Source of the DNA: Nannocystis bainbridge
GTDB taxonomy: Bacteria > Myxococcota_A > Polyangia > Nannocystales > Nannocystaceae
Reading direction: 5' to 3'
DNA length: 64,000 nt
NCBI RefSeq assembly: GCF_028368995.1
Contig: NZ_JAQNDL010000004.1
Span: 672,001 to 736,000 of the forward strand
The position numbers and the translations under genes were made by a program. The notes under the pieces were generated by a model. It was not told the origin of the DNA. It ran no database searches and was given only the letters and a program-made list of their open reading frames with translations. Positions within the stretch are counted from its first letter, which is position 1. Every line of letters starts with the position of its first letter. Below, one piece after another: positions 4,307 to 25,290 of this stretch.

Positions 4307-4540
4307 GAGCGAGTTCCTCCATTCTCCACGCTAGCGGATCCGCCAGGCCCGCGCCGCGCGGGCGAGCGGAACCGCGACGGACGTCGCGCGGGTCGATTCG
4401 CCGTCAATGGTGGTACTCGGGGTGCGCCCATTGCGGGTCATCGCCATGTGCGACGATCGCGGGGCCGGACGCGAGCCCGCGGGCCGAGTTGAAGCCGGGC
4501 CTGCGGGCATCTACGCTGGTGAAATGAGCGGGGCAGGGTC

Positions 4541-5431
4541 GTGACGGTGCGCGCGGAGAGCCTCGATCTTTCGCTGCGCGAGGTGCTGTTGCTGCTCGAT
4601 CGCGGGATCCGGGCGGTCCAGGCCGAGCGCGGCCTGGTGGTCGACGGCGTCGTCGGCCCGAGGACGCGGGCCGCCCTCGACGACCTGCTGCGCGCGCCGA
4701 CCGGGGTGCCGCGCGGCAAGGGGATGTTCGTCCGCTCGGTGAAGCACGTCGGCTCGATCGAGGCGATGATGGCCCGAGTGGCGCAAGCCGGGCTGGGCTG
4801 GCTGGCGTTCCAGTGCATCTGGCAATACGCCGACAAGAAGAGCGCGGTGTGGACCGGCTTCTCGCGCCACGCCGCGGCGCTGCGCGCGGCCGGCCACGCG
4901 TGCTGGGTGTGGGGATTCCCGTACGCGGGGCGCGAGGCGGAATTCGTCGATGTCTTGCTCGGCACGGCGACCGGTTGCGGCGCGGCGGGCGTGCTCGTCG
5001 ACGCCGAATTGCCGTACGTCGAGGCGCCGGAGGCGGCGGCGCGATTGATGGCAGCGCTCTTGCCTGCCGCGCGCCGGGCCGGGCTGGCGGTCGGGCTGAC
5101 CTCGTACGGCGCGCCGTGGAACTTCCCGCGGTTCCCGTGGGCGGCGTTCACCGGGGTCGACTTCGCGGCGCCGCAGATCTACGACGCGAGCAACAATCAG
5201 GGCCCGGGCTACGCGCAGCGGTCGATCGCGGCCTATCGCACGCTCGGCTTCTCGCGCGTGGTCCCGGCCGGCCCGACGTTCGGCAAGACCGCCGCGCAAT
5301 GGTCGGCCCTTCACGCGTCGCTGCCGGTGCCCGACGGGGCGGTGGTGTGGTGGGATTGGTTCAACAGCACGCAGAATCCGTTCACCTGGAACGGCGTGCG
5401 AGATTTCGTGGTGCCGCCGCGGAATGTGTAG
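4541..5431 (+). CDS. Peptidoglycan-binding motif plus probable glycoside hydrolase-like TIM-barrel domain; start uncertain
   Basis: QAERGLVVDGVVGPRTRAAL (PG_binding_1 C-terminal half); VWGF, VDAE and PQIY motifs. Confidence 0.65.
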   Translation: MTVRAESLDLSLREVLLLLDRGIRAVQAERGLVVDGVVGPRTRAALDDLLRAPTGVPRGKGMFVRSVKHVGSIEAMMARVAQAGLGWLAFQCIWQYADKKSAVWTGFSRHAAALRAAGHACWVWGFPYAGREAEFVDVLLGTATGCGAAGVLVDAELPYVEAPEAAARLMAALLPAARRAGLAVGLTSYGAPWNFPRFPWAAFTGVDFAAPQIYDASNNQGPGYAQRSIAAYRTLGFSRVVPAGPTFGKTAAQWSALHASLPVPDGAVVWWDWFNSTQNPFTWNGVRDFVVPPRNV

Positions 5432-5714
5432 AGTCGGGGGCCGCGGCGCGGCGTGCAGGCGCTGCCGGGACCGGCGCGCGGGCGTCGACGGTTTTCGCAG
5501 CTCGTGGCCATCGCCCGTTGAGGGCGGGTCTCGAGGTCTCGCGCCGACAGGTCGACTGCGCCGGCTCGCTCGCACGCGCGCGGGCCGCATGATCACGCAG
5601 GGCGCCGGGGCCGGGGCCGGTCGCCACCGCGCCCGGCGCGTCCGAGGGCCGTCGCCGCCCTGCCTCCGGAGCCGCGACCGCCCGGCGCGCCGACGATCTG
5701 CGAGACTGCGGCCC

Positions 5715-6272
5715 ATGACCGACACGCAGGCAGGCGACCGAACATCCTTGCTCGGCGTGATCCTCGGGCTCAGCGTCGGCGTGCTGATCGGCGGAGGGGT
5801 CACCTACCTCGGCGTCGACGCCACCGCCGCGGAGCTGCGCCTGCGCAGCGGCGGCGACATCGTCGAGGCCGACGTGCTCGACACGCGGGTGATGAAGGCG
5901 CGCAACACCGGGACCACGTACGAGGTCCGGTACGCTTTCACGCTGGCGGGAGCGGCCGAGACGTACACCCTCAGCGACGGGACCGGCCGCGAGGGCCTGT
6001 GGACCGCGCTGCCCGTGGCCGACTGGGAGGCCGCGCGCGCGTCGGGGAAGGTGGCAGTGCGCTACCTGCCGGGCGACCCGTGGGTGAGCCGTCCGGTCAA
6101 CGCCGCCGCGCCGCCGCTCGGCGACTCGATCGCCGGGCTCGTCCTGGGTCTGCTGATCGCGCTGCCCTGCTTGCTGTTGCTCGTCCGGGTCCTGATTCGC
6201 CGCCCGCCGCCGCCGCTCGTGGCCGCGAGTGAAGAAGTGCGGGCGCGACCGGGCCGGCGGTCCGCGGACTGA
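5715..6272 (+). CDS. DUF3592-like membrane protein
   Basis: Two TM helices flanking a beta domain with YEVRYAF..GKVAVRYLPGDP. Confidence 0.75.
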   Translation: MTDTQAGDRTSLLGVILGLSVGVLIGGGVTYLGVDATAAELRLRSGGDIVEADVLDTRVMKARNTGTTYEVRYAFTLAGAAETYTLSDGTGREGLWTALPVADWEAARASGKVAVRYLPGDPWVSRPVNAAAPPLGDSIAGLVLGLLIALPCLLLLVRVLIRRPPPPLVAASEEVRARPGRRSAD

Positions 6273-6904
6273 ACTTGGTCGGGGCGGGCGAGGCCGGCCG
6301 GTTCGACCTCGGTGCCTATCGTGGGAGCGTCGCGCTCGTCGGCCCTGGCCGGCGGACAATGGCATCACGCCAGAATGCAATGTGCCAGTGACCTCGAATC
6401 GCCCATGACAGGCGCTGCGCGCGCAAAATTCGCGCCGAACCATGTCCGCCACCGGCGTGGAGCGCCCCCAGGCCGAGGGGCAAGTTCGCCCATGGGTCGG
6501 GCCGCGGCAGGTGCGGAGCCCAGACCACAAACGGCGCTCGCCTGCGCCGAATTTGCGCCCCGAACCGGGCTCGAATGCGCGATGTCGCGCGACTGAGACG
6601 CGAAGGGGCGAAAATGACCTGAATTCGCCAGGAGAAGATCTCCCGCGAACGGTCCAGCTGGGTCTCGCTCTGGGTCCGAATCTGCGAAACCGCGAGCGGC
6701 CCGCGGTTGCGACGCGTACCTTGTTCCCCTCGAGGGCTGGGTAAAACGCGAACTTGGCGCCGCTGAATCGACCCATTCGATTGCGAGCGAGGCCGCGCAT
6801 TATCGGGGGATGCGGCCGCGGCTTCACGGTGCATTCCCTGGCTTCCATCGCCAATCCTTTTCGTGAAGATATCGCTGGGCGTCCCACAAACCCAGGAGAT
6901 TGCG

Positions 6905-9133
6905 ATGACTCGGAATCGAGTGCAGTATGTATCGTTGGCTACGATGATGATTGGTGCGGTCGGTGCATTTGGATTGGTCGGGTGTACCGAAAACGAGGTC
7001 GACGAGGCGGATCTCGGCGACGACGTCGAGTTCAAGAAAGACGGCGATCCGAAGGCGTTCCCGGGCGAGAGCTTCTCGGCGGACAAGCTGCCGTTCGTCG
7101 AGCCGCTCGAGACGGCCGAGGTGTTCGTCCAGAAGCTGCCCAAGGCGACCGAGGCCGGTGACAACGTCGCGGTGCACATCAAGCTGGACAAGCCGCACAA
7201 CAAGGACCTCCAGGACAGCCTGGTCCGCGTCGTCGGTGACCCCAAGAACCCGATGATGCTGGTGCGCAGCGACGCGCTGGTCGAGCTCGGCGTGCTCAAG
7301 GAGAGCCCCGGCAAGGAGTTCTTCACCGCCTTCGCCACGCTCAGCGCCGAGGAGCTCGAGCAGCGGGCGAAGACCGAGCAGAACCTCGCCAAGTTCGGCG
7401 AGACCACCAAGGACCGGATCGTGTTCGAGGGCCGCAACCCGATCGCGGTCACGACGGGCATCAAGTTCGACATCAGCGTGTTCGACACCGGCGTCCCGGT
7501 CGCGCTCGGGCCCTGTCCGCTCGCGCCGATCTCGACGCCGGCGCGCTGGGAGGAGGCGCTCCTCATCACCGACCTCTCGGTGGTCCGCGACAAGAACCGC
7601 ACCAACGACGTGTGTCACCCCGGGGCCGACAACCCGAACGGCGTGTGGACGTTCAAGCACCTGATGGAGGAGATGGCGATCGGCTCGGGCCTCAGCACCA
7701 ACGATTTCGTGGTCAAGTGGCTGTCGACCTGGCTGACCAATCAGGTCGTCAACAGCGACACGCTCCCGGCGCGCACGCAGATGTTCCAGCAGGTGATCCG
7801 GCCGTGGGCCAACGCCAGCGGCGTCACGTCGTCGCTGGTGGGCGGCAACCTGACCCTCGGCGGCCCGCTCAACCTCGACAAGGCGCCGTTCCGCCTGTCC
7901 GCGATCGTCAACCGCATCGACCTCGGCGAGACCAGCAGCGGCGGCATGTACGGCGGCGGCGGCATGCCGCTCACCGCGGGCGAGATGCGCTTCGTGTTCG
8001 GCGTGCAGAACCTGAACAGCTGCGCGCAGCTGCCCTTCTCGGTGATCTTCGAGTACGGCGTGCCGCGGGAGGACTGCGCCGCGATCAAGGACTGGGCGAA
8101 CCAGTGGATCCGGCTCAGCGACCCGCTGCTGCCCCGGTTCTCGTCCTCGTGGCGCGCCCACCTGGAGAGCATCACCGAGAACGTGGTGCTCAACGGCGCC
8201 GCGCCGGCCAAGGGCAACCAGAACGCGATCAACCAGATCCGGACCAACGAGAACGCGCTCAACTTCCAGTGGGAGCTCCGCGAGTTCACGCTGTCCACCG
8301 AGGACGCGCTCACGAATGTCGACACGCCGACCGACGGCCCGCTGCAGCCGCACACCGTCGCGCTGACCCCCAACGACAGCTTCTACAACGCGTCCGGCGA
8401 CGTCGACATCGACGACTGGACGCTGTTCACGCCGATGCCGCCGTCGGGCGCGCCCGGGGCGGTCCTGTCCGAGGTCTCGTTCGGCGCGGCCTTCACCACC
8501 GGCGCGAGCGGCAACACGATCGTCAGCGACTGCAGCCCGAGCTACTCGATGCCGCTCGTCGCCAGCGGCCTGCCGCTGCGCGGCGGCAACGCTTTCGTGT
8601 CGCCCGTGGATCACTGGCAGATCGCCGCCGCCGATCCGAGCGATCCGCGGGAGGTCTGCGCGCGCCAGCAGTTCTCGATCAACTCCTGCAGCGGCTGTCA
8701 CAAGGAGGACTCGGCCACGCCGTTCTTCCACGTCGATCCGACGAGCGCGCCCGCGAGCCTCTCCAACTTCCTGACCGGCGGCGGCGCCGGCAACGTGTGG
8801 GCGGTGCCCGACCAGCAGTGGGGCCCCGGCGTGGCGTGGATGGAGTTCGCCGACCTCGATCGCCGGCACAACCGGCTCTACGAGATCGCGTGCAACAGCT
8901 GCGGCCGCAGGTTCGTGTTCCCGCACCTCATCGACGTCATCATGGAGGTCAACGGCATGGTCCCCGTGGACACCGGCGTCGCCGAGGATTCGCCGATCAA
9001 GGTCGGTCCGGTGACCAAGCTCGACACGGTCAAGCACCTGCTCAACGCCGCCGCGAAGGTCGACAAGGACGCGGTCGCGCAGGACGTCGAGCTGAGCCGG
9101 TTCACCGGCACGAGCCAGGTGTTCGTGCACTGA
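6905..9133 (+). CDS. Large lipoprotein with a single CxxCH heme-binding motif, function unknown
   Basis: GGAG RBS; lipobox LVGC; strong GC3 bias; INSCSGCH near the C-terminus. Confidence 0.85.
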   Translation: MTRNRVQYVSLATMMIGAVGAFGLVGCTENEVDEADLGDDVEFKKDGDPKAFPGESFSADKLPFVEPLETAEVFVQKLPKATEAGDNVAVHIKLDKPHNKDLQDSLVRVVGDPKNPMMLVRSDALVELGVLKESPGKEFFTAFATLSAEELEQRAKTEQNLAKFGETTKDRIVFEGRNPIAVTTGIKFDISVFDTGVPVALGPCPLAPISTPARWEEALLITDLSVVRDKNRTNDVCHPGADNPNGVWTFKHLMEEMAIGSGLSTNDFVVKWLSTWLTNQVVNSDTLPARTQMFQQVIRPWANASGVTSSLVGGNLTLGGPLNLDKAPFRLSAIVNRIDLGETSSGGMYGGGGMPLTAGEMRFVFGVQNLNSCAQLPFSVIFEYGVPREDCAAIKDWANQWIRLSDPLLPRFSSSWRAHLESITENVVLNGAAPAKGNQNAINQIRTNENALNFQWELREFTLSTEDALTNVDTPTDGPLQPHTVALTPNDSFYNASGDVDIDDWTLFTPMPPSGAPGAVLSEVSFGAAFTTGASGNTIVSDCSPSYSMPLVASGLPLRGGNAFVSPVDHWQIAAADPSDPREVCARQQFSINSCSGCHKEDSATPFFHVDPTSAPASLSNFLTGGGAGNVWAVPDQQWGPGVAWMEFADLDRRHNRLYEIACNSCGRRFVFPHLIDVIMEVNGMVPVDTGVAEDSPIKVGPVTKLDTVKHLLNAAAKVDKDAVAQDVELSRFTGTSQVFVH

Positions 9134-9147
9134 GCCGCGCCGAGCAG

Positions 9148-9175
9148 CGCCCGCGGCCGACGAAGGCCGCGGGCG
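9148..9175 (+). terminator. GC-rich hairpin after the lipoprotein gene
   Basis: CGCCCGCGGCC-GACGAA-GGCCGCGGGCG; no U-tract. Confidence 0.45.
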
Positions 9176-9268
9176 GCTGCCTCGATCCGATCGCAGCGAG
9201 ACCGCCGCACAATCGACCGCCCGGAAGCGCCGCTTAAGCGCGAATACGTCTGTATGCTTGGAGGCAAC

Positions 9269-9502
9269 ATGAGCACTCTCGACCGAGTCAAGAAGATCGT
9301 CGTCAAGCATCTTGAAGTCAAAGCCGCCAAAGTGACCAAGCAAGCGAACTTCGTCCGCGACCTTGGCGCCAATGCCAACGACATGCTTGAGCTGGTCATG
9401 GCGTTTGAGGAAGAATTCGGCATCGAGATTCCCGATGATGCGGAAGAGAAGATCTCCACCGTGAAGGATGCGATTGTTATCATCGAAAGCAGGCAGGGCT
9501 GA
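9269..9502 (+). CDS. Acyl carrier protein homologue lacking the phosphopantetheine Ser
   Basis: AcpP-like [36 protein letters not shown]; GGAGG RBS; DSL replaced by NAN. Confidence 0.85.
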
Positions 9503-9689
9503 TCGGCTTTCCTGGCGTGGCCGATCTGTCGGGAGAACCCATGAGCGAAGCCTCGACGCAGAAGGTGTCTCTTTTGAGGGCAGCCGTAGGCGCGGCCGTG
9601 CTCGCGGCGTTACTCGTCGGAGTCATCCTCGACGAGCGAGATCCGGCGTCGGTCTTGGCGACATGTAGGATCGGCGAGACATGAGTGAA

Positions 9690-9921
9690 CGGTCGTGGCA
9701 GCGCGCCACAGGTACGGGCGAGCTCCACGTCCTCGCGGGCGTAGATGTCCTCCTGGCGGTGCAACGGGAGGTGGTCTTGCCACCGGCGCACGATCGTGTC
9801 GGCGAGCAGGTCGGGGCCGGCGAGCCCACGCTCGATCGGTCGCTCGGGCGTCTCGGCGATCAGGACCAGGGTGTTCAGCGCCGTGGGATCGGTCACCCTC
9901 CGGACAAACTTCGGCCGCACG
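9690..9921 (-). mobile_element. IS66-family transposase (TnpC) internal remnant
   Basis: RPKFV..PERPIERGLAGPDLLADTIVRRWQDHLPLHRQEDIYAREDVELAR, the typical IS66 DHLPLxRQ motif. Confidence 0.8.
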
Positions 9922-12853: not shown

Positions 12854-13037
12854 TCGCCGCGAAAATTCCAATCAACATACTCCGCGCGCGGTTACGGACG
12901 CGCCGGAAATGTCACGAGTCCGAACGGTTCTCGTGACCGACGAATGACGAGCCCCCGGGGGTCGAGCCCGGGAATGGCGCGTCTGTTCGGCGGTGCGGGC
13001 CAATCGTCACAATTGAGAAAGACCTCGAGGTTACGTC

Positions 13038-14435
13038 ATGTCGAATGCTCAGAAACCCGGTGATTTTGGCTCGCAGACCAGCCTGGCGACCGCAGCAGCG
13101 CGCAATTTGGCGACGACGACCAAGTCGGAGCCGCAGATGCAAGGCATCAGCTCGCGGTGGCTGCTCAAGCTGCTGCCGTGGGTGCGCGCCGCGGGCGGCG
13201 TCTACCGCGTCAACCGCCGCCTCAGCTACGCGATCGGCGACGGTCGCCTCAGCTTCACCAACGTCGGCGCCAAGGTGTCGGTGGTCCCGCAGGAGCTGAG
13301 CGAGCTGCCGCTGCTGCGCGGCTTCGACGACGTCGAGGTGCTCGCGGCCCTGGCCGGCAAGTTCGTCCAGCGCGAGTACAAGGCCGGCGAGTTGCTGGTC
13401 GAGGCCGGCAAGCCCGCCGACCAAGTGTTCCTGATCGCCCACGGTAAGGTCAACAAGCTCGGCACCGGCAAGTACGGCGACGAGACCGTGCTGGCGGTGC
13501 TGGCCGACGGCGCCCACTTCGGCGACCAGAACCTGGTCGAGGAGAACGACACGTGGGGCTTCACCGTCAAGGCGGTGACCCGCGTCATCGCCCTGACGCT
13601 GCCCGAGAAGGCGCTCGCCGACGCGGTCGAGCAGTCGCCGGCGCTGCGCGCCCAGGTCGAGAAGTTCAAGGCCAACCGCGGCAAGCCGCAGAGCGGCCAG
13701 GGCGAGGCCGAGATCGCGCTGGCCTCCGGCCACCGCGGCGAGGTGGCGCTGCCGGGCACGTTCGTCGACTACGAGCTGTCGCCGCGGGAGTACGAGCTCA
13801 GCGTGGCCCAGACGGTGCTGCAGGTGCACTCCCGCGTCGCCGATCTCTACAACGAGCCGATGAACCAGACGCAGCAGCAGCTGCGCCTGACCATCGAGGC
13901 GCTGCGCGAGCGGCAAGAGCACGAGATGATCAACAGCCCCGAGTTCGGCCTGCTCCACAACGCCGACCTCAAGCAGCGCATCCACACCCGTTCGGGCCCG
14001 CCGACCCCGGACGACCTCGACGAGCTGCTGGCGCTGGTGTGGAAGGAGCCGACGGCGTTCCTGGCCCACCCGCGCACCATCGCGGCGTTCGGCCAGGAGT
14101 GCAGCAAGCGCGGCATCTACCCGCACCCCGTCGAGTTCGCGGGGCATCACATCCCGGCGTGGCGCGGCGTGCCGATCCTGCCGTGCAACAAGATCCCGGT
14201 GACCGACACCCGCACCAGCTCGATCCTGCTGCTGCGCGCCGGCGAGAAGAACCAGGGCGTCATCGGCCTCCACCAGCCGGGCATCCCCGACGAGGTCGAG
14301 CCGAGCCTGTCGGTGCGGTTCATGGGCATCAACGAGAAGGCGATCATCTCGTACCTCGTCAGCGCCTACTACTCGGCCGCCGTGCTGGTGCCCGACGCGC
14401 TGGCGGTGCTCGAGGACGCGGAGATCGGTCGCTGA
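13038..14435 (+). CDS. Family 2B encapsulin shell protein with cNMP-binding insertion (EshA/Cnb-like), copy 1
   Basis: [67 protein letters not shown]. Confidence 0.92.
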
Positions 14436-14471
14436 GGCGGCCGCGGAGCTGAGTCGTAGAGGAGACCGGTC

Positions 14472-15869
14472 ATGTCGGACACGTCGAACCCGAGAGATGA
14501 TGCGCAGACGAGCCTCGCCACGGCGGCGGCTCGCAACCTGGCGACGACCACCAAGTCGGCGCCGCAGATGGCGGGCCAGAGCCCGCGCTGGCTGCTGCGC
14601 CTGCTCCCGTGGGTCGACGTGCCCGGCGGGACCTACCGCGTCAATCGTCGCCTGACCTACGCGGTCGGCGACGGGCGCGTCGGATTTACCAGCGTCGGGC
14701 CGCGCGTGCAGGTCATCCCGCGCGAGCTGACCGAGCTGCCGCTGCTGCGCGGCTTCGAGGACGACGAGGTGCTGTCGGCGCTCGCCGATCGCTTCGTCCA
14801 GCACGAGGTCGCCGCCGGCGAGGTCATCGTCGCCGCCGGCGCGCCCGCCGATCGCGTGGTGCTGCTGGCGCACGGCAAGGCGCGCAAGCTCGGCCCCGGC
14901 AAGTACGACGATTCGCTGGTGCTCGGGCAGCTCGTCGACGGCGATCACTTCGGCGACGAAGGCCTGGTCGCGCGCGGCGACGCGTGGCCGTACACGGTGC
15001 AGGCGGTCACGCGCTGCGTGGTCCTGACGCTGTCGGAGCAGGTGCTGACGCGGGCGATCGCCGACTCCCCGGCGCTCGCCGCACACGTCGAGGCCTACGC
15101 GCGCCGACGCGCGCAGCCGCAGGACAAGAGCGGGCAGCAGGCGATAGCGATGTCCGCCGGGCACAGCGGTGAAGCGACGCTGCCGATCAGCTACGTCGAT
15201 TACGAGCTGCGCCCGCGCGAGTACGAGCTCTCGCTCGTGCAGACGATCTTGCGCGTACACACCCGCGTGGCTGACCTCTATAGTGAGCCGATGGATCAGA
15301 CGCAGGAGCAGCTGCGCCTCACGATCGCGGCGGTGCGCGAGCAGCAGGAGCACGAGCTGCTGAACCACCGCGAGTTCGGGCTGCTGCACAACGTCGACCT
15401 CAAGCAGCGGATCCCGACCCGCAGCGGGCCGCCGACGCCCGAGGACCTCGACGAGCTGCTGTGCCGTCGGCGCTCGACCCGGTTCTTCCTGGCCCACCCG
15501 CGCACGATCGCCGCGTTCGCCCGCGAGTGCACGCGCCGCGGGATCTACCCGCAGACGCTGGCGCTCGAGGGCAGCGCGATGCTCGGCTGGCGCGGGGTCC
15601 CGATCGTGCCGAGCGACAAGATGCCGATCTCCCGCGAGGGCACCAGCGCGATCCTGGCGATGCGCGTCGGCGCCGAGTCGCAGGGCGTGATCGGGCTGCA
15701 CCAGACCGGCATCCCCGACGAGGTCGAGCCGAGCCTTTCGGTGCGCTCGATCGGGGTCGACGACCGCGCGGTCCACGAATACCTGATCACTGCGTACTTC
15801 TCGGCGGCGGTGCTGGTGCCCGACGCGCTGGGGATGCTCGAAGACGTGGCGATCGGTCGCCAGGAGTAG
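14472..15869 (+). CDS. Family 2B encapsulin shell protein, copy 2
   Basis: Same motifs and length (465 aa) as the upstream paralog. Confidence 0.92.
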
Positions 15870-18224
<2,355 letters not shown>

Positions 18225-18297: not shown

Positions 18298-19392
18298 TCA
18301 GCGCGGCGCGGTGGCCTGCGCGGCCTCGATCTCGGCGTGGATCGCGGGCGCGTGGAGCCGGGTCCACTCGAGCACGGCGCGCAGCTGGACGCCGTAGTTC
18401 TCGGTGCGCACCGCGACGCCGTCGAGCTTGATCGTCGCGCCGGGGAGCTCGCGGTGGCCGCGGTGCAAGGCGACGACGCCCCACTCGTCGTCGCACACCG
18501 GCGAGCCGGAGGCGCCGCTGCGGGTGTCGGTGAGATAGCTGAGCCAGTGGCTGTCGCCGTGCACGACGAAGTTGTTGCGCAGGCCGATCCGCATCGGCTC
18601 GCCGTCGGGGTGCTGCAGGACGTTGACGCACTCCGCCAGCGGGGTGTCGCGGGTGCGCTCGAGCGGGCGCACTCGCAGGCGCAGCGGCGGACGGTCGACG
18701 GGCCCCAGCCGCAGCAGCGCGAAGTCGAGTTCGGCGTCGGCGGCGACGACCTCGAGCACACCGACCGATTCGAAGGGAGCGTCGGGGGCGAGGTAGTCGA
18801 ATTGCAGGACGGTCCCGCGGGCCTGCAGCGCGAAGTCAGTGGCGGTGATCGTCTCGCCGTCCTGGCGCGCGGCGATGACGTGATGGTTGGTGATGCCGAG
18901 GTTGGGCGCGATCAGCCAGCCGGTGCCGGTCGAAACCTCGGGGCTCTCGTCGGCCTGGTAGCGCGGCTTGTCGCCGAAGTGACGGTGGACCAAAACCTTG
19001 GCCACCGACTTGGCCGCCTCGGCGCCGCGGACGAGGAAGCGGGCGGAGATGGTGTGATCGCGCCGGGTCGACAGGGCCTCGAGGTGGAGGCGCGAGAGCT
19101 GCTCGGGCGAGGTCCAGGCGTAGGGCTTGGGCTGGGACCACTCGGCCGCGACGGCCTGGATCTCGGCGCTGCGGCGCGGTCGCTCGGCGCACAGAGCGGC
19201 GAAGAAGCGGGCGTCGACGAGCTGACGGCGCTCGAGCAGTTCGCACGCGGCCTCGACGAGCTGCACGGGCGGAACGTTGGCGCCGGGCAGGGCGAGGATC
19301 ACCTCGTCGCCGAAGCCGTAGCGCAGGAATCGCCGCAGCTCGTCGGCGCTGAACATGCTGAGCAAGAGGCGCTCCAACCGTTGTGTTCGCAT
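18298..19392 (-). CDS. Effector-associated-domain (EAD-like) protein fused to a trypsin-like serine protease
   Basis: N-terminal helical ~85 aa (LLLSMFSADELRRFL..FFAALCAERPRRSAEI); triad TNHHV / DFALL / GASGSP. Confidence 0.8.
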   Translation of the reverse strand: MRTQRLERLLLSMFSADELRRFLRYGFGDEVILALPGANVPPVQLVEAACELLERRQLVDARFFAALCAERPRRSAEIQAVAAEWSQPKPYAWTSPEQLSRLHLEALSTRRDHTISARFLVRGAEAAKSVAKVLVHRHFGDKPRYQADESPEVSTGTGWLIAPNLGITNHHVIAARQDGETITATDFALQARGTVLQFDYLAPDAPFESVGVLEVVAADAELDFALLRLGPVDRPPLRLRVRPLERTRDTPLAECVNVLQHPDGEPMRIGLRNNFVVHGDSHWLSYLTDTRSGASGSPVCDDEWGVVALHRGHRELPGATIKLDGVAVRTENYGVQLRAVLEWTRLHAPAIHAEIEAAQATAPR

Positions 19393-19445
19393 GGCGGTGT
19401 TCGGCTCGAAGGATCAAGGCGAGGATGGCGGGTTTCGGTCAGGCA

Positions 19446-21200
19446 TCACTCGGGTTCGGGCGCGCCGAGGCGGACCTCGAGGGTGATCGGGACGACGATG
19501 CGCAGGCTGTCGGTGGTGGTCGTTGCGGTGGTGGGGGCGAGCTGCACGCGACGTCGCGGTCGCGCGGGGGCGGCGGTCGTGTCGGCGATCCGCCGGCGCA
19601 GGGCCATGGAGGCGTGGCGCGGGACGGCCGGCAGCGGTGATTCGCCGAGGACCGCGTCGACCAAAGCGCGACGATAAACAGGGTCGACGACGAGCTGCTG
19701 CAAGACCTCGACGCCGAGGCCCGGGGCGGCGGTCGTGAGGTCCTCGCGGGCGCCGGCGCCGAGCAGGTGGGCGACGCCGAGGCGGACGCGCTGCTCGACG
19801 CTGCGGGTCTGCGCGTGCGCCGAGACGATGGCCTCGTGCGGGCCCGTGCGACCGCGTGCGCGCTCCAGGGCGAGGGGCAACAAGGCGTCGACGAGCATCG
19901 CTTCGGGGGCGGCCGGCGGCGTGGCGCCTGGGGCCTCCTCGCCGAGCGGCAGCGGGGCCTGCAGCAGGGCCGCGCAGTCGAGCAGGCCGGCGCCGAACCA
20001 CGCCCGCGGGAACGGGCCGGGATCGAGGGCGTCGCGGGTCGAGCCGGCGAGCGCGCGGCGAAACGCCTGCGGCAGCGCGGCGCCGGGGTAGCGCTGGCGC
20101 AGCGCGACGGGGTCGTGCCGGGCCAGCCACAGCGCGGCGGCCGAGGCGACCAGGGCGGTCGCGTAGGAGGTGCCGCTGCTGATCCGCGTCACGGCGTCGC
20201 CGTCGCGCCAGTCGGCGACGAGCATGCGGTGGCCAGGGGCCGTCAGGGCGACGCTCGGGCCCTTCGACGAGTCACTCCATACCTGTCCTTTAGGACCGGT
20301 GGCCGCGACGGCGAGCACCTCGGGATAGGCGGCCGGCCAGACCACGAACTGCACGTGGTTGCCGGCGGCGGCGACGACGATGACGCCGCGCGCGTGGGCC
20401 CGCTCGACCGCGCGGCGCAGGCGAGCGCCAGGCAGGCCGCCGAGGCTGAGCGAGACGACGTGACAGCCGCGCGCGACCGCGTGGTCGATGGCCTGGGCCA
20501 GGCGCGCGTGCCAGGTGAGGATGACGACCGAGTCGGTGACGCGGATCGGCACGAGCTCGGCGGCGGGCGCGAGGCCGACGACGCGGTGCGGCAGCCGTTC
20601 GCGGCCGACCATGAGGCTGCTGGTCGCGGTGCCGTGGCCGGGTTGGCCCACTGGCGCGAGCGGATCGATCGGCGGGCTGCCGGGCTCCATCAGGTTCAGG
20701 CCCTGGTCGTGCAAGACGGCCGCGCCGGCGAGGCTGGGGTGCTCGGTGGTGCCGCTGTCGGGGTGACCGATCCGCACACCGTGGCCGTGGCCGTGCTGCC
20801 AGGCGCGCTCGGCCCCGATCTCGGCCAGATGCCAGCGCGGCGGGGGGTTGATGGAGAGCTCGGTGCCGGGGGCCTCGCGCACTTCGGCGGCGATCCGGGC
20901 GTCGATCTCGGTCAACGCGTGATCGAGCTCGGCCTCGGCGATAGCGGCGAGCTCGGGGCGAGCGGCCAGCGCTTCGGTCAGCGCGTGGGCGGCGTTCCAG
21001 CCGCGGCGCAGGTCGGTGCCGGCGGGCGCGAGCACCTCGATCAGCCGCCGCGGCTCGCCGGGGTCGGCGGGGCCGCGGACGCGCCAGCCGCGAGCGGCGA
21101 GGCCCGCGGTCTGCACGGCGTGCTCGACGGCGGCGGCGGCGTGGGCGGCGGTGTCGGCGGTGAGCTCGACGACGACGCTGCGGGTGTTCGGCGGGTTCAT
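19446..21200 (-). CDS. S8 subtilase-family peptidase, no signal peptide
   Basis: GHPDSG (D), GHGTAT (H), AAAGN, SGTSYAT (S); ATG overlaps the upstream stop (ATGA). Confidence 0.9.
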   Translation of the reverse strand: MNPPNTRSVVVELTADTAAHAAAAVEHAVQTAGLAARGWRVRGPADPGEPRRLIEVLAPAGTDLRRGWNAAHALTEALAARPELAAIAEAELDHALTEIDARIAAEVREAPGTELSINPPPRWHLAEIGAERAWQHGHGHGVRIGHPDSGTTEHPSLAGAAVLHDQGLNLMEPGSPPIDPLAPVGQPGHGTATSSLMVGRERLPHRVVGLAPAAELVPIRVTDSVVILTWHARLAQAIDHAVARGCHVVSLSLGGLPGARLRRAVERAHARGVIVVAAAGNHVQFVVWPAAYPEVLAVAATGPKGQVWSDSSKGPSVALTAPGHRMLVADWRDGDAVTRISSGTSYATALVASAAALWLARHDPVALRQRYPGAALPQAFRRALAGSTRDALDPGPFPRAWFGAGLLDCAALLQAPLPLGEEAPGATPPAAPEAMLVDALLPLALERARGRTGPHEAIVSAHAQTRSVEQRVRLGVAHLLGAGAREDLTTAAPGLGVEVLQQLVVDPVYRRALVDAVLGESPLPAVPRHASMALRRRIADTTAAPARPRRRVQLAPTTATTTTDSLRIVVPITLEVRLGAPEPE

Positions 21201-23233
21201 GCGTCCTCCGGCGCGGGCGTGAACTCGACGAGGTCGACCCATTGTGGGTGATCGATGAACGGGTTGCGGTTGCCCTGCACGGCGAAGATGGCCTGATTGC
21301 GGTGACGCTCGTGGAGGCCGGGCGGATCGTCCGTGGACCAGCGCTTCAGCAGCTCGATCTGGGCCGGCGTGGGCGTGCGGGAGGGGTCGAGCTCGCTGGC
21401 GTAGCGGACCAGGAAATAGAGGGTCGCGCGGGCGACCGGGCCGTGGCCGTCGCCAGGCTCGAAGTACGGGCCCTCGCCCTCGCCGCAGGGCGGCATCGGG
21501 GTGTCGCGGTCGAACTCGTGGTAGGCGCGGTCGGCCCGCAGGGTGTTGCAGGGCGGGTCGCAGGCGAAAAGATGGTGGAGGTCGCCGCGCATCGGCTCGC
21601 GCTTGCCGAACCAGCTCTGCGGGACCACGTGCTCGCAGTTGTAGGGCAGCTCGGCCTCGACGGCGGCGTCGATGTCGGCGAGCGAGAGGGAGGTGCGGCG
21701 CGCCCGCAACTCCGATCGGCGGGCCCGGCGGGCGGCGTCGATGCGGGCGTCGTCGGCGATCAGGGCCTCGGGCGAGAAGGTCGCGCCGGAGTAGATCGAG
21801 GCCAGGCGGAGGTCGGGGCGGAGGTCGACCCAGGGGTAGAGCTGGTGGCTCGGATTGTATTTCGGCGCCTCGGCGTGGGTGGTCGTGAGCAGGGCCGAGA
21901 GCGATTCGTGGCAGATGTCGTGGAGGATGTCGGCGTAATAGCTCGCGCGATCGCTGGCGTCCTGGGCGGCGTCGTAATACGGGCGAGCGCGGGCGGCGGC
22001 GACGAGGCGGTGCAGGTCGGCGGCAATGGGGGCAGGCTGCTCGACCGCAGCAATGGTGGCACCCGCCGCGGTGCCGAGCCGCACGGTGATCTCGATCGGC
22101 ACGGTGATGCGCAGGGTCTGGCCCGGAACGGCGACTGTGGTGATTGACGGCGCCGGGGCGATCGGCGGCGCCTGCTCGAGGTCGTTCCAGGCGGCGCTCC
22201 ATTCGCCCGGCAATTCGCGGGGCGCGGCGGCGCCGGCGAACCGGACCCCGGCGTCGACGATCCGCGGATCCCAGGCGAGCTCGGCGGCGGGGACGGCGAA
22301 GTTGCGGTCGAGGTAGACGCCGCCGAAATGCAGCCCGAGCACGCGGCCGGTGGCGACGTCGAGGATCGCGGCGCCGGAGCAGCCGCCGAGGGTCGAGGAG
22401 TCGTGCAGCGCGGCCGAGACGGTGCGGCCGAAGCTGGCGACGCGGCGGCGGCCGCCGAAGTAACCGGGGGCGAGGCGTTTGAGGTTGTAGCGGCCGCGGA
22501 ACACGCGTTGCTGGATCGTCAGGTCGTTGCGCAGATCGAGGCCGGGATAACCGATCACTGCGACGCGCCGACGGGCGGCAGGATCGTCGACGGCGAGCGC
22601 GAGCGGGGTGACCTGCAGGCCGTCGACGCGCAGCAAGGCCAGGTCCCAGTAGGGGTGGATCAGGACGACCTCGGACACTGCGTAGGTGGGGCCGTCGGGC
22701 TCGTCCTGCTGCTCGCGGCGCGGATCGAAGCCGGCGGTCTGGCCGGGGAGGAAGCGCAGGTGGGTGCGCCCGAGGCCGCCGGCGAACAGCTGGGCGACGT
22801 GGCGATTGGTCATGATGAGGCCGTCGCCGACGACGAAGCCGGTGCCGCCGTAGGGCAGCGAGAGGTTGTCCGGCAGCTCGATGCGGCCGATCGCCGGCAG
22901 GCAGGCTTCGATGCGCGCGCGGAGGTCGGCGTCGGCGTGGAGGTCGAAGAACTCGCCGGGCGGCAGACCGAGCAGCTTGCCGTCAGCGATGTCGGCGACG
23001 GGCCGCTCCCTGGGCAGGATGATCGCCTCGAGGCACTCGAGGTCGCCCGGCGCGAGCGGGGCGCGATCGATCCACTTGCGGGCGGTGCTGCGGACCTGAT
23101 CGGTCTGGCGCGCGTCGAGGCCGAACCACTGGGCGGCGCCGGCGACGATGGGCTCGACGGAGGCGCTGGATTCGAGGTGGGACGGTGGCAGGATGGAGTC
23201 CGCGTAGGCGCGGACGCGGGCGGGCGAGGCCAT
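21197..23233 (-). CDS. Trypsin/V8-like protease fused to an endonuclease I (EndA-type beta-beta-alpha-Me) nuclease
   Basis: GTGFVV..TNRHVA, DLALL, HDSSTLGGCSGA; C-terminal NCEHVVPQSW..GDLHHLF..CN..R, ARATLYFLVRY, QGNRNPFIDHP. Confidence 0.9.
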   Translation of the reverse strand: MASPARVRAYADSILPPSHLESSASVEPIVAGAAQWFGLDARQTDQVRSTARKWIDRAPLAPGDLECLEAIILPRERPVADIADGKLLGLPPGEFFDLHADADLRARIEACLPAIGRIELPDNLSLPYGGTGFVVGDGLIMTNRHVAQLFAGGLGRTHLRFLPGQTAGFDPRREQQDEPDGPTYAVSEVVLIHPYWDLALLRVDGLQVTPLALAVDDPAARRRVAVIGYPGLDLRNDLTIQQRVFRGRYNLKRLAPGYFGGRRRVASFGRTVSAALHDSSTLGGCSGAAILDVATGRVLGLHFGGVYLDRNFAVPAAELAWDPRIVDAGVRFAGAAAPRELPGEWSAAWNDLEQAPPIAPAPSITTVAVPGQTLRITVPIEITVRLGTAAGATIAAVEQPAPIAADLHRLVAAARARPYYDAAQDASDRASYYADILHDICHESLSALLTTTHAEAPKYNPSHQLYPWVDLRPDLRLASIYSGATFSPEALIADDARIDAARRARRSELRARRTSLSLADIDAAVEAELPYNCEHVVPQSWFGKREPMRGDLHHLFACDPPCNTLRADRAYHEFDRDTPMPPCGEGEGPYFEPGDGHGPVARATLYFLVRYASELDPSRTPTPAQIELLKRWSTDDPPGLHERHRNQAIFAVQGNRNPFIDHPQWVDLVEFTPAPEDA

Positions 23234-23610
23234 GGAGACGAACAGCAAAGCACGCGCGGACGGGCGAGAAAAGCCGGACGGCGCGGGGAAAGACGGGGTG
23301 CGCCGATCTGGCGAAATCGCGGACGATGAGCATTGCCCGGCGGTTGAACCGTGTTCGTCGGCGGCGCGGATGGAGGCCCGCGCGCGCGCCGGAGCGGCGG
23401 GCAGGCGTTCGCGGGGTGTGCGTTTTCCGGGGCACGCGACCAGGGACGGAAAGGCCGCCGACGAACACGTCGATGTCCATGCGCCATCCTGGGCGAGTGT
23501 CGCGCGCCGGCATCGCGCATGACTTCGAATCGAAGCACGCGCGAACGCGCCGCGCCGATCCTGCGTTCCCAGCCGGGCCTGTGGGCATTGCGCCGAGCCG
23601 GCGCCTGGGC

Positions 23611-24981
23611 TCAATCGACCTGCGGAATGCAGGGACAGTCGTCCCAGTCGCCGACGCACAGCTGCTCCGGCGGGGCGTTCAATTGTTGTTGCACCCATCC
23701 GTCGACCTGCGCGGGCGTCACCTGGGTGTCGATGAATTGCAGCGACTTGACGAGCTCCTGCACGCTGCCGAGGCCGTCGAGCGAGGTGAGGCCGGGGCTG
23801 TTGGTGACGACGAGGAACCGCGCGCTGGTCAGCGCGTCGAGGCCGGCCAGGCTGGTGAGGCCGTCCATGCGAAAGCCGGTCTGCGAGCAGTCGCCGATGG
23901 CGAGGTTCACGTCGACGAGCTTCAGCTGCTCGAGGCCGTGGAGGTCGGTGACCTGCGGCAGGCCCGAGACCTGCAACGTGTGGACTTGCTCGAGGGCGGC
24001 CAGCTGCGCCAGATCGGGGACCTGGGGCAGGTCGCGCAGCGACAGCAGGCCGGCGGCGGCGATCGTCTCGAGGCCGGCGAGCGACGCGAGCTCGGGCAAC
24101 GAGCGCAGCCGCAGCGTCATGTCGGGGCCAGCCTGGGCGAACAGGGCGGCGCTGGGCGACAGATCGGCGAGCGTCGCGTTGTCGGCGAGCAGCACTTCGA
24201 GCGCGGTGATGCCGGAGTACTTCAGCGTGGCGAGCGCGTCGACGTCGACGAGGGCAGGGTTGCCGACCACGTGGAGCTCCTCGATGCCCTCGTAGTCGGG
24301 CGCGAACGTCGGCAGGCTGGTGATCCCGGTGGCGAAGATGTCGAGCGTGACCAGCCGCTTCAGGTTGGCCAGCGCGGACATGTCGGTGAGCGCCGGCGTG
24401 TCCTCGATGCGCAGGCTGAACAGGTCCTCCACGCAGGCGAGCGGCGAGAGGTCGGTCAACACGGCGTTGCTGTCGAGCTGCAGCGCGCTGGCGGTGACGA
24501 GGTTGGCGAAGCCCGCGAGCTGCGCAACGGTGAGGTCGCCGGTGATGTGGATCGATCCGGTCACGCGCGTGACGCAGGCCATGAACTCGGTCGAGTCGCC
24601 GGGCCCGATCTCCACGTTGCCCTCGAACTCGAGCGCCTCGGGGCACGGCGGTCCGCAGTCGACGGCGGACTCGCCGGTGGTGGTGGTGTCGCCGGTGGTC
24701 GAATCGCTGGTGGTGGTGTCGCCGGTGGTCGAGCTCGTGAGGGTCGTCGTGCCGTCGCTCGTGTCCGTGGTGGTCGAGGCGGCGCTCGTGGTCGGTCCCG
24801 GCGGGTCGCCGGTGGTGCTGTCCGTGCTCGTCGACGACGGCGGCCCGTCATCGGTGGTCGGCGAGGTGTCCGAGGTCGTCCCGGGCCCGCTGACGCTCTC
24901 GCCGTCGGTCTCCGTGTCGGCGGGCTTGGGAGCGCAGGCGAGAGTCACGATGCACGCGAGCCACGAATGAGCACGAGCCAT
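23611..24981 (-). CDS. Leucine-rich-repeat (receptor L-domain-like) lipoprotein
   Basis: Lipobox TLAC, Thr-rich linker, LTSLAGL/LTDLSPL repeats. Confidence 0.85.
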   Translation of the reverse strand: MARAHSWLACIVTLACAPKPADTETDGESVSGPGTTSDTSPTTDDGPPSSTSTDSTTGDPPGPTTSAASTTTDTSDGTTTLTSSTTGDTTTSDSTTGDTTTTGESAVDCGPPCPEALEFEGNVEIGPGDSTEFMACVTRVTGSIHITGDLTVAQLAGFANLVTASALQLDSNAVLTDLSPLACVEDLFSLRIEDTPALTDMSALANLKRLVTLDIFATGITSLPTFAPDYEGIEELHVVGNPALVDVDALATLKYSGITALEVLLADNATLADLSPSAALFAQAGPDMTLRLRSLPELASLAGLETIAAAGLLSLRDLPQVPDLAQLAALEQVHTLQVSGLPQVTDLHGLEQLKLVDVNLAIGDCSQTGFRMDGLTSLAGLDALTSARFLVVTNSPGLTSLDGLGSVQELVKSLQFIDTQVTPAQVDGWVQQQLNAPPEQLCVGDWDDCPCIPQVD

Positions 24982-25290
24982 CCGCGCAGCGTACATGCGC
25001 GTGGCGATCCGGCTCAAGGCGCGGACGAGCCCTCGCGTGGCGAGGAGATCGCCGTGGCTGCAGCGCGCGGCGACGCGGCCGGAGCTGCGCGATGTTCGGG
25101 CCTCGCAGGCCGAGGGACTCGGCGGCGCGAAGAGGCAGCGCGCACGCTCGCGGACGCGACGGACGGGTCAGCGCATGAACCCGGTGTCGGGAGACACGGG
25201 CCGACGGTCGGGGGCGCAGGTGGCCACCGGGCTTCGACGCAGGGCGAGCGGCCGGCGCCGAAGGGCGAGCGAGATCCGCCCGCGGCCCGC

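Follow-up and report, generated by a model that had tools for sequence, protein, structure and literature searches.

The three co-oriented genes A, B, and C at positions 18298-23233 of the 64,000-nucleotide stretch of Nannocystis bainbridge DNA analyzed here (the window) look, from their sequences, like a variant of a cell-suicide or immunity system that has already been described. Kaur, Burroughs, Iyer & Aravind 2020 (eLife 9:e52696) named it the NucA-peptidase system, and it overlaps with the CARD-NLR systems that use trypsin-fused effectors (Wein 2023 preprint) and with LypABC (Banks et al. 2026, Nat Microbiol). The Nannocystis cluster departs from these relatives in that its nuclease is an Endonuclease I, its S8 protease is a separate gene, no NTPase is present in cis, and its adaptor belongs to a 14-member family. 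Taken as a whole, the best explanation, to which we assign a probability of roughly 60%, is that A-B-C is an NTPase-less, Endonuclease I-bearing variant of a known cytoplasmic multiprotease/nuclease module, in which a sensor would trigger a proteolytic relay.

Gene layout and domain content

All three genes lie on the minus strand with open frames that are intact in translation: A (21197..23233, 678 aa) encodes a trypsin joined to Endonuclease I, B (19446..21200, 584 aa) an S8 subtilase, and C (18298..19392, 364 aa) a helical adaptor joined to a second trypsin. The TGA of A overlaps the ATG of B as ATGA, and a 53-bp gap separates the stop codon of B from C, in agreement with the layout given in the first-pass annotation of this DNA. 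The start of B at 21200 matches the N-termini of its homologs in the family alignment; a 918-aa ORF for B was rejected, its Arg/Pro-rich N-terminal third corresponding to A in another reading frame. Upstream of A, a 377-bp intergenic region (23234..23610, minus strand) is presumed to hold the promoter of the A-B-C unit. No sigma-70-type site was found in this region, a result of little weight for a myxobacterium.

The A protein consists of a conserved N-terminal region, a trypsin-like peptidase, a disordered linker that carries a beta motif, a helical extension, and the Endonuclease I domain. Its Trypsin_2 domain (22331..22846, minus strand; residues 130-301; Pfam E = 4.6e-18) contains the triad H145, D197, and S286, which is invariant in 13 aligned sequences and conserved to at least 90% in a set of 55. 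The Endonuclease I core (PF04231; 21245..21652, minus strand; residues 528-663; Pfam E = 6.7e-29) retains E534-H535 and N563; the Endonuclease_1 match begins at profile position 73 of 235, with the helical extension in place of the start. AlphaFold2 predicts two folded modules for A (pLDDT 85.1). Gene B encodes a conserved N-terminal region of ~110 aa, the S8 domain, a helical region toward the C-terminus, and a motif in the tail. The Peptidase_S8 domain (PF00082; 20112..20786, minus strand; residues 139-363; Pfam E = 6e-30) matches thermitase and subtilisin in the PDB (E = 1e-18), and its D148, H189, and S345, together with the oxyanion residue N281, are all invariant in an alignment of 40 sequences. 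The Trypsin_2 domain of C (18466..18927, minus strand; residues 156-309; Pfam E = 3.2e-17) carries H171, D223, and S295. The intact triads read earlier from the three proteases were thus located and found conserved in alignments, and the fusion of a trypsin to an Endonuclease I domain with an EH..N core was likewise borne out.

In the first 60 residues, the Kyte-Doolittle maxima over a 12-residue window are 1.16 (A), 1.05 (B), and 1.28 (C), and no 19-residue window exceeds 1.49 anywhere in the three proteins. These values are consistent with the absence of signal peptides, as the first-pass annotation had it, and of transmembrane segments. In other bacteria, Endonuclease I and most subtilases are exported, and the catalytic domains of periplasmic Endonuclease I (Vvn/EndA) and of the secreted subtilisins match those of A and B, respectively. 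With a myxobacterium as host, A, B, and C might on these grounds be digestive enzymes of a predator, exported by a nonclassical route to degrade prey. We consider this extremely improbable. Unlike the exported enzymes, A and B lack a hydrophobic N-terminal segment, as does C, and they are fused with conflict-system modules or have them as neighbors; in an alignment of 13 A-family members drawn from several phyla, the N-termini are charged helices. Moreover, C bears an intracellular-type, Death-fold-like adaptor common to NACHT, SAVED, and CHAT proteins, and in other phyla the A family is found together with STAND NTPases.

A shared motif and its genomic context

The linker of A and the tail of B carry the same short motif. 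In A, this 16-residue beta motif (22070..22117, minus strand; residues 373-388) lies inside the disordered protease-nuclease linker, where AlphaFold2 gives residues 362-396 a pLDDT below 50; in B, the copy (19461..19508, minus strand; residues 565-580) follows a Thr/Ala/Pro-rich linker. By a position-specific scoring matrix (PSSM) built only from A-family linkers, the B tail scores 18.5 bits, against a maximum of 3.6 for shuffled proteins. The motif of A is the best match in the whole genome (38.6 bits), and that of B is the second best among the 16,827,999 residues of its six-frame ORFs; at 14 bits or more, these ORFs yield A, B, and one low-complexity match only. A regular expression for the motif matches 101 of the 120 A-family proteins listed, and the motif was found in 73 of the A genes at the 80 best A-family loci, in genes with partners and without. 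It also occurs in 19 of 99 B-family proteins, at the extreme C-terminus in 15 of them, and in one split form (L057), it goes with the N-terminus of the NucA gene. We found no description of this motif in the texts of Kaur 2020, Wein 2023, and Banks 2026 available to us.

The A protein belongs to a large family that combines a conserved N-terminal region, a trypsin, the linker motif, and a swappable effector. Among 8000 scored candidates, 1258 proteins belong to the family at E ≤ 0.001 and have the N-terminal region and trypsin in common; in a one-genome-per-species collection, the pattern gave 380 matches, of which 369 were confirmed. The C-terminal domains interchange among PF04231, PF01223, PF02450, or none, with PF01223 in most relatives. 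In other phyla, A-family genes stand beside trypsin genes with EAD1 or Death-like domains and beside STAND NTPases, with fusions to S8 domains in some cases; the domains found in partner genes include EAD1, bDLD2, nSTAND1, and AAA_16. For the 80 best loci, we counted neighbors within 8 kb. A C-type adaptor-trypsin gene accompanies A in 21 of them, across phyla, and another second trypsin gene in 8 more. A B-family S8 protease is present in 9, fused to an A-type trypsin in four (L081, L090, L091, and L110) and separate in five (L033, L034, L042, L052, and L068). Gene B itself encodes a signal-less subtilase, and members of its family recur next to trypsin genes or fused to them, including trypsins of the A type. 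In metagenome loci centered on B, where many contigs are short, a trypsin was seen in only 8 of 80.

The flanks of A-B-C contain encapsulin and terpene-synthase genes and LRR and FG-GAP genes and do not form a defense island. We found no STAND/NLR gene in the cluster, in its flanks, or among the larger ORFs of the window that were scanned, and three NTPase-type partners from other loci, used as queries, had no match at E ≤ 0.001 in the genome, which is 90.5% complete. The A locus occupies the same chromosomal slot in five Nannocystis genomes, with differing gene content. In the orthologous cluster of Nannocystis sp. G005, an additional gene for a trypsin joined to Endonuclease_NS (PF01223) lies between B and C; in G010, B is a 70-aa remnant; and in G001, A is kept, with other genes in the place of B and C. 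The components of the three-gene unit seen in the first pass are not obligately together, as G010 and G001 illustrate.

This uneven retention is open to another account, in which A is a self-contained unit whose N-terminal region senses, whose own trypsin cuts its own linker, and whose nuclease then acts, with B and C independent or accessory and no three-step cascade. At about 48 of the 80 A-family loci, A stands without another trypsin or an S8 gene within 8 kb; G001 keeps A in the absence of B and C, and G010 keeps it with B no longer whole; the motif is found in A genes whatever their partners; and the genes flanking the A block are heterogeneous, with 136 Pfam families among 128 neighbors, each in at most three. 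We nevertheless judge this account quite unlikely. The tail of B has the motif of A and is the sole other strong match in the genome bar the low-complexity one, the two genes overlap, fusions of A-type trypsins to S8 domains exist, and C-type genes accompany A across phyla. In the LypABC system, all three proteins are required (Banks 2026).

The pattern of substitution bears on whether the cluster still works. For A, B, and C, dN/dS is 0.42-0.52 at a dS of about 0.33-0.37, and dN is ~3 times that of the flanking genes, whose dN/dS is also lower. Together with the lack of an NTPase in cis, the erosion of B in G010, and the absence of B and C from G001, the elevated ratio might mark A-B-C as the decaying, nonfunctional remnant of a once complete system that has lost its NTPase. 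Such decay appears very unlikely, however, in that the three frames are intact with all catalytic residues kept, dN/dS stays below 1 over that dS range, and the motif is retained in both A and B. Frameshifts in the G007 congener look like assembly errors because the neighboring encapsulin gene is also hit.

The adaptor family and a possible relay

An EAD-like adaptor had been proposed for C, and an adaptor domain is indeed present. The adaptor domain (19123..19392, minus strand; residues 1-90) has helices at residues 2-13, 16-27, 29-33, 42-55, 61-70, and 72-86; in the AlphaFold2 model of C (overall pLDDT 89.6), residues 2-86 form a six-helix bundle with pLDDT 88-98. The domain aligns by hhalign (profile-profile comparison; probability 93.3%, E = 2.7e-7) with the N-termini of proteases that adjoin A-family genes in other phyla, and some of these adaptors, from C-type proteases beside A genes, match Pfam EAD1. 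No Pfam EAD model was matched by C itself at E ≤ 0.1. Homologs of C are mostly EAD5-trypsin proteins, and the closest ESM Atlas structure clusters to the adaptor carry EAD1 or EAD7, a lead only. Fold searches of C against the PDB returned lists filled by trypsin-domain matches (model range 113-358), which hid the N-terminal domain, and residues 1-100 had no PDB match by sequence search. On the predicted fold and profile comparisons, C resembles a Death-fold-like, EAD1/EAD7-like adaptor joined to a trypsin and would be the counterpart of the CARD/EAD-proteases.

The host genome encodes 14 domains of this adaptor family, that of C and 13 paralogs, and their fusion partners include NACHT-HEAT, SAVED (twice), CHAT (twice), and FGE-sulfatase. 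The NACHT-HEAT protein lies on another contig (C1:1628440-1631802). Against CBASS effector models, the SAVED parts give E values down to 3.9e-60, and a CdnC-like CD-NTase (E = 3.1e-23 to PDB 6p80) adjoins one of the adaptor-SAVED proteins. Proteins with the adaptor of C that could act as sensors are present elsewhere in the genome, as had been anticipated.

From these components, we infer a cascade. A sensor with the same adaptor, encoded elsewhere, would assemble on a trigger, the EAD-NACHT-HEAT protein and the CBASS-type SAVED-EAD proteins being candidates. The assembled sensor would draw in C through adaptor-adaptor contacts, and the protease of C, activated by proximity, would start a proteolytic relay through A and/or B. 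The motif that A and B share may serve as a docking or processing handle, and release of the nuclease and/or the subtilase from restraint would lead to cell death or arrest. The cluster could serve in abortive infection or in some other form of programmed lysis.

A wider proposal, which we regard as tentative and rather doubtful, has two parts: that the motif is a common processing or docking handle across the family, in trypsin-effector linkers, split-nuclease N-termini, and subtilase C-termini, so that one upstream protease licenses several effectors, and that the Nannocystis module is wired in trans through the 14-member adaptor family to a NACHT-HEAT NLR and to CBASS-type SAVED receptors. 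If both were true, the result would be a hub-and-spoke death network resembling animal adaptor signaling, and the motif would offer a first handle on effector switching in the CARD-NLR and LypABC systems. The locus and its relatives in any case provide a concrete, testable element, a short linker motif kept across phyla and common to two neighboring effectors; were it a cleavage or docking site, the protease-cascade idea of Kaur 2020 would become directly testable. The cluster also indicates that the module can occur in a form with no NTPase in cis, and the presence of adaptors of this family on CBASS-type SAVED sensors bears on how the Death-fold adaptors of bacteria link sensors to effectors in trans. 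Should none of these readings hold, A-B-C simply adds a member to a family already described.

Comparison with known systems

In PADLOC-DB 2.0.0, A and C match trypsin-domain models only (nacht, 3.3e-09; RT-Protease_XI; PDC-M35A), and no family matches B. The first-pass annotation did not recognize the cluster as a named system and took it for the best candidate for a new one, a claim that is not supported: the A family is the NucA-peptidase, or NucA-trypsin, conflict system (System 3) of Kaur 2020, and it overlaps with CARD-NLR and LypABC. As described there, System 3 has peptidase paralogs in its operon, sometimes including an S8 protease, as well as EAD1-trypsin proteins, and a proteolytic cascade that deploys the nuclease was proposed. 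Like A-B-C, which has two trypsins and an S8 protease in one unit, it combines a trypsin fused to a nonspecific nuclease with further peptidase genes. In System 3, one trypsin paralog is fused to an EAD that recurs in proteins elsewhere in the genome, an arrangement to which the adaptor of C and its 13 paralogs may correspond; the G005 cluster even contains a trypsin-NucA gene. The differences are that the nuclease of A is Endonuclease I (PF04231) rather than NucA/Endonuclease_NS (PF01223), the term "Endonuclease I" having no occurrence in the main text of Kaur 2020, that B is a separate S8 gene with its own motif-bearing tail, and that the adaptor of C falls short of the Pfam EAD1 model. Kaur 2020 also states that organisms with EAD1 versions encode no other EAD1 system, whereas the Nannocystis genome joins the C-type adaptor to NACHT, SAVED, and CHAT proteins.

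CARD-NLR systems (CARD_NLR in DefenseFinder) protect against phage in a manner that depends on protease and ATPase; their death effectors, such as gasdermins, nucleases, and phospholipases, are often fused to a trypsin-like protease, and the Wein 2023 preprint describes Azospirillum-type three-gene operons with trypsin-fused effectors. A-B-C shares with them an effector fused to a trypsin (A), the adaptor on the trypsin of C may correspond to their Death-fold adaptor, and A-family genes in other phyla form operons of exactly this type with STAND ATPases; A-B-C itself lacks the NLR-like ATPase and has the extra S8 gene. The Lysobacter-type gasdermin/CARD system in the same preprint resembles A and C in having two trypsin genes, which there are consecutive and act upstream of a death effector, and its one protease with a CARD-like N-terminus may be matched by C, but that effector is a gasdermin instead of a nuclease or subtilase, and its operon includes an NLR-like ATPase.

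By its published description, LypC of Caulobacter crescentus (trypsin, 1-335; flexible linker; endonuclease, 354-662) has the domain order of A and a similar size, and LypA combines a CARD-like domain with a trypsin, as C probably does. An extra ATPase-like domain in LypA and the essential NLR-like ATPase LypB are absent from A-B-C, and LypABC has no S8 protease. The LypC peptidase is essential for lysis, and its nuclease residues are dispensable, so release of the nuclease need not be the killing step in A-B-C. How CARD-NLR and LypABC-type systems are activated is stated to be unknown in the Discussion of Banks 2026. LypABC is required for lysis mediated by gene transfer agents (GTAs) and lies outside any defense island, as A-B-C does in its fixed slot in five genomes; Table 1 of Kaur 2020 reports, further, that the NucA system is over-represented in multicellular bacteria (29 of 45 organisms, P = 6.3e-08). 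The same machinery might accordingly have a role other than antiphage defense, in host-controlled lysis or DNA degradation such as developmental autolysis in a myxobacterium that forms fruiting bodies, or the release of particles or DNA. We think this unlikely in view of the raised dN and the variable gene content among congeners, both typical of conflict genes, the adaptor on SAVED sensors next to a CD-NTase, and the phage defense provided by related CARD-NLR systems. Overall, the initial assignment of A-B-C to a cytoplasmic, conflict-type protease/nuclease family stands in outline, resting on the Kaur 2020 family with its proposed cascade, on the antiphage activity of the CARD-NLR relatives, and on the adaptor-bearing NACHT-HEAT and SAVED proteins elsewhere in the genome.

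The protease cluster and its genomic slot

Three genes lie side by side on the minus strand: gene A (21197-23233; 678 aa), gene B (19446-21200; 584 aa), and gene C (18298-19392; 364 aa). Their translations bear out the layout described in the first-pass annotation, with an ATGA overlap between the stop of A and the start of B and a spacing of 53 bp between B and C. Because the window has a G+C content of ≈70%, its six-frame ORF lists are rich in spurious frames; homolog alignments fix the start of each of the three genes. A 918-aa ORF considered for B was rejected, as its 5' end is A read in the wrong frame. Pfam places Trypsin_2 at residues 130-301 and Endonuclease_1 at residues 528-663 of A, Peptidase_S8 at residues 139-363 of B, and Trypsin_2 at residues 156-309 of C. 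The catalytic residues of A (H145/D197/S286, plus the nuclease residues E534-H535...N563), B (D148/H189/N281/S345), and C (H171/D223/S295) are present and conserved in the alignments, in agreement with the intact triads and EH..N core reported earlier. Hydropathy analysis reveals no hydrophobic N-terminal stretch in A, B, or C, consistent with the earlier statement that none carries a signal peptide. The cluster thus encodes intact, cytoplasmic-type enzymes in a tight, operon-like arrangement. Generic trypsin-fold relatives (MarP, Esp, and HtrA) were all that a fold search with the model of A returned. A scan for sigma-70 promoters gave 0 sites, a result that is uninformative for this organism.

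Downstream of the cluster and convergent with it (13038-18224, plus strand) are two family-2 encapsulin shell genes in tandem, both SrpI-like (E 3e-137 and 2e-128) and both encoding cNMP-binding domains. After them comes a gene for a two-domain terpene synthase of 782 aa with geosmin-synthase-like architecture. Four other Nannocystis genomes keep this arrangement, with 88-96% identity. A 1739-aa open frame (12912-18131, minus strand) entertained as a downstream sensor was rejected because it is antisense to these encapsulin and terpene synthase genes; it is an artifact of high G+C content and not a gene. Upstream, a 377-bp gap separates the cluster from genes for an LRR protein (23611-25017, minus strand) and an FG-GAP protein. 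A tblastn search (E ≤ 1e-6) of syntenic regions from the four other cluster-bearing Nannocystis genomes gave no match to the LRR gene, and therefore the slot beside the cluster is variable too. Among the larger ORFs scanned in the window there is no NTPase sensor, and KdpD, an amidohydrolase, and a GreA-like protein are ordinary. The genome itself is an 11-Mb assembly in five contigs. Among public sequencing runs, no RNA data set was listed as a match, and the nine soil-metagenome DNA data sets that were listed contained at most 0.37 of the sampled words.

In the four other Nannocystis genomes the cluster again lies between the terpene synthase and FG-GAP genes, but its content differs. One genome (G005) has A, B, an extra gene, and C. 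The extra gene, between the B and C orthologs (locus L033, 11913-13838; the same as L023), encodes a 641-aa fusion of trypsin with Endonuclease_NS (NucA), placing a canonical "NucA-trypsin" protein inside the same cluster. A second genome (G007) has all three genes with frameshifts, which are probably assembly errors because the adjoining encapsulin gene is also split. A third (G010) retains A and C with a 70-residue remnant of B, and in the fourth (G001) the place of B and C after A is taken by a LysM/PG-binding gene and a gene for a 909-aa protein of unknown type. Between species, identity is ≈74% for A, B, and C and 88-96% for the flanking genes; dN for A, B, and C is about three times that of the flanks, and dN/dS is 0.42-0.52 compared with 0.14-0.40. 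The cluster is a modular island that evolves fast and is under purifying selection, the usual pattern for conflict genes. At a second site in G001 (L027, ≈7254-9903), two trypsin genes precede a gene that matches A only in its linker and Endonuclease I part (residues 355-672, 39% identity), a split version of A.

A short beta motif shared by A and B

AlphaFold2 models the protease module of A (to residue ≈355) and its nuclease module (from ≈400) with confidence, with residues 362-396 between them at pLDDT < 50. Within this linker lies a 16-residue motif (residues 373-388) in which hydrophobic residues alternate about an invariant proline. This residue, P379, shows no variation among 13 aligned sequences, and its conservation is at least 90% in an alignment of 55. 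The motif is recovered by regular expression in 101 of the 120 listed A-family members and by a position-specific scoring matrix (PSSM) in 73 of the 80 A genes of the best loci. Built from A-family linkers only, this PSSM scores the extreme C-terminal tail of B (residues 565-580) at 18.5 bits, compared with a maximum of 3.6 bits for shuffled proteins. Motif tails above that shuffled maximum occur in 14 other B-family proteins, and in two homologs the motif is near the N terminus. At ≥14 bits, the six-frame ORFs of the whole genome (16,827,999 residues) yield only A, B, and one low-complexity repeat. In a split form of the A architecture (L057), a separate NucA protein carries the motif at residue 10. 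Judging from the A linkers, the B tails, and this NucA N terminus, the motif travels with effectors and can be attached at either end. It is always in a flexible segment and co-occurs with an A-type trypsin.

We infer that a protease of the system uses the motif as a handle for docking or processing. No motif residue is conserved in the fashion of a P1 site, and the AlphaFold2 model of A does not dock the motif in cis. A predicted complex of A residues 1-404 with full-length B scored 0.02 against a mark of 0.32, a value that, coming from a run without controls, speaks neither for nor against binding. An amyloid-signaling motif of the BASS/RHIM-like type is not favored, given that the motif is absent at ≥12 bits from the P-loop proteins of the 80 loci and at ≥14 bits from every other protein of the genome; a match in a histidine kinase (L058) is taken as chance. 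We found no description of this motif in the sections consulted from papers on related systems.

Two further features were observed in the B family. The metagenomic B homolog P0128 (655 aa) consists of an A-like N-terminal helix, a motif copy at residues 42-57, a whole subtilase, and a C-terminal motif copy; it looks as if an A gene had lost its protease and been fused to B. A second short conserved element, "AS..LR..L", lies at B residues ≈525-540 (≈19581-19628, minus strand), near the C terminus of the S8 family; many members without a beta-motif tail end with this element. Its S531 and L534 are kept in at least 90% of the 40 sequences in the B-family alignment.

Neighborhoods across phyla and the adaptor network of C

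We examined the best 80 A-family loci using crude gene calling (GC3-based, with HMMs). A C-family trypsin gene is present in 21 of these loci, another second trypsin gene in 8 more, and a B-family S8 in 9. The S8 is fused behind an A-type trypsin at four loci (L081, L090 Pseudomonas chlororaphis, L091, L110 Mesorhizobium) and is a separate gene at five (Nannocystis L033 and L034, planctomycete L042, L052, L068); about 48 of the 80 have A with neither a second trypsin nor an S8. By Pfam, partners include EAD1-trypsin and bDLD2-trypsin proteins, nSTAND1-like proteins (some with NucA), and 1250-aa AAA_16/pYEATS NTPases, and on a Kuenenia contig an EAD1-nSTAND1 NTPase adjoins A. Outside the A block the flanks are heterogeneous: in a scan that omitted five long NTPase genes, 128 neighbors fell into 136 families with at most three occurrences each, S8, AAA_16, and TIR_2 reaching three. 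The reciprocal scan of metagenome loci centered on the B family, many of them on contigs of only 2-8 kb, found a trypsin in 8 of 80, including two A-type fusions, one C-type trypsin-motif-S8 fusion, and one S8-trypsin fusion. From the two scans, the links among the A, B, and C modules are recurrent, Rosetta-stone fusions included, but not obligate. Three NTPase-type partners from other loci had no match in the genome at E ≤ 0.001. On one Planctomycetota MAG contig (L042), a pair formed by a short A and B lies between a TIR-SLOG protein and an LRR-Roc-COR-TIR protein, in a neighborhood dense in conflict-type genes.

The N terminus of C is an adaptor. AlphaFold2 models C as a confident six-helix bundle, a disordered linker (residues 103-112), and the protease. 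Residues 1-90 have 13 paralogs in the genome, which answers the earlier suggestion to look for other proteins with the same adaptor. They are fused to CHAT (two), SAVED (two, with the adaptor once N-terminal and once C-terminal), an FGE-sulfatase domain, short unknown or membrane-like proteins, and a NACHT-like NTPase with HEAT repeats; the closest paralog (43% identity) is a protein with no recognized domain. A profile of the paralogs matches the N termini of C-type proteases beside A in other phyla (hhalign probability 93.3%, E 2.7e-7, 84 columns), some of which match Pfam EAD1. The nearest ESM Atlas structure clusters bear EAD1 and EAD7 (TM 0.64-0.87, depending on the query), which serves as a lead only. 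Most sequence relatives of the C protease bear EAD5, and a few bear both the C adaptor and EAD5; because EAD5 occurs instead of or in addition to it, the adaptor is swappable. Fold searches with the C model (Foldseek against the PDB and VIA-align wide) were both filled by trypsin-domain matches. When the sequences of C and of an EAD1-trypsin protein (L054) were searched against the PDB, no CARD-like entry was returned.

Two groups of paralogs resemble immune sensors. The NACHT-HEAT protein (1109-1121 aa; contig C1, 1628440-1631802; L111, 2477-5806) carries the adaptor at its N terminus; its NACHT-like NTPase is assigned from weak Pfam matches, and PADLOC yields no match for the protein. We regard it as a candidate sensor, acting in trans, for effectors that bear the adaptor. 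In both SAVED-adaptor proteins, the SAVED part matches models of CBASS effectors (E down to 3.9e-60). One belongs to a CBASS-like unit with a split effector (contig C2, 1389993-1393174; L113, ≈3991-7174), in which a CdnC-like CD-NTase (E 3.1e-23 to PDB 6p80) is divergent from the gene for the SAVED protein with a C-terminal adaptor, and this gene lies between the CD-NTase and an adaptor-CHAT protease gene. Its SAVED part matches SAVED-nuclease effector models of CBASS (E 3.9e-60), and the adaptor seems to take the place of the usual fused effector. Because the SAVED-adaptor proteins are CBASS-like and one adjoins an adaptor-CHAT gene and a CD-NTase, the adaptor links immune-type sensors to separate effectors in this genome. 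It is plausible, as the first-pass annotation proposed, that a sensor for C is encoded elsewhere in the genome.

Relation to described peptidase systems

A search of 5.8 billion proteins places A in a family of at least 1258 proteins (E ≤ 0.001 among 8000 scored candidates), its closest homologs among the matches listed being from Nannocystis. The conserved N-terminal region and the trypsin, which together make up the first ≈350 residues, are 40-50% identical across phyla, and the C-terminal part is exchanged: among 120 listed members it is Endonuclease I in ≈30, Endonuclease_NS/NucA in most, and otherwise a PF02450 lipase-type domain or none. A one-genome-per-species collection gave 380 pattern matches, of which 369 proved to be A-family, with hosts in Myxococcota, Acidobacteriota, Planctomycetota, Alphaproteobacteria, Actinomycetota, Pseudomonas, and others.

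DefenseFinder CARD_NLR subtypes include a subtilase one. Our literature search found no paper that joins CARD-NLR systems with a subtilase, and the 2026 STAND preprint contains nothing on trypsin systems. The architecture of the A family is that of the NucA-peptidase system (Kaur et al. 2020), in which a trypsin is fused to NucA, sometimes with an S8 domain, one trypsin paralog is fused to EAD1, and some operons include a STAND NTPase with a Death-like domain. LypC of Caulobacter is described as having a trypsin (1-335), a flexible linker, and an endonuclease (354-662), and its peptidase serine is essential for lysis while its nuclease residues are dispensable (Banks et al. 2026). In such relatives, according to the literature, defense or lysis needs an adaptor-protease and an NTPase, together with the effector protein's own peptidase.

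By our proposal, assembly of a sensor would recruit and activate C; a proteolytic relay would then pass through A and/or B, at the motif, and the nuclease and subtilase would be released or activated, leading to cell death. Of the new findings, the conserved linker and tail motif is the most useful, since it makes this cascade hypothesis testable. The cytoplasmic cascade put forward in the first-pass annotation is in part supported, but its claim of an unrecognized system is not supported: the cluster represents a variant within a family that was described in 2020 and received partial validation in 2023-2026. It is distinguished by its Endonuclease I effector, its stand-alone, motif-tagged subtilase, the lack of an NTPase in cis, and its rich in-trans adaptor network.
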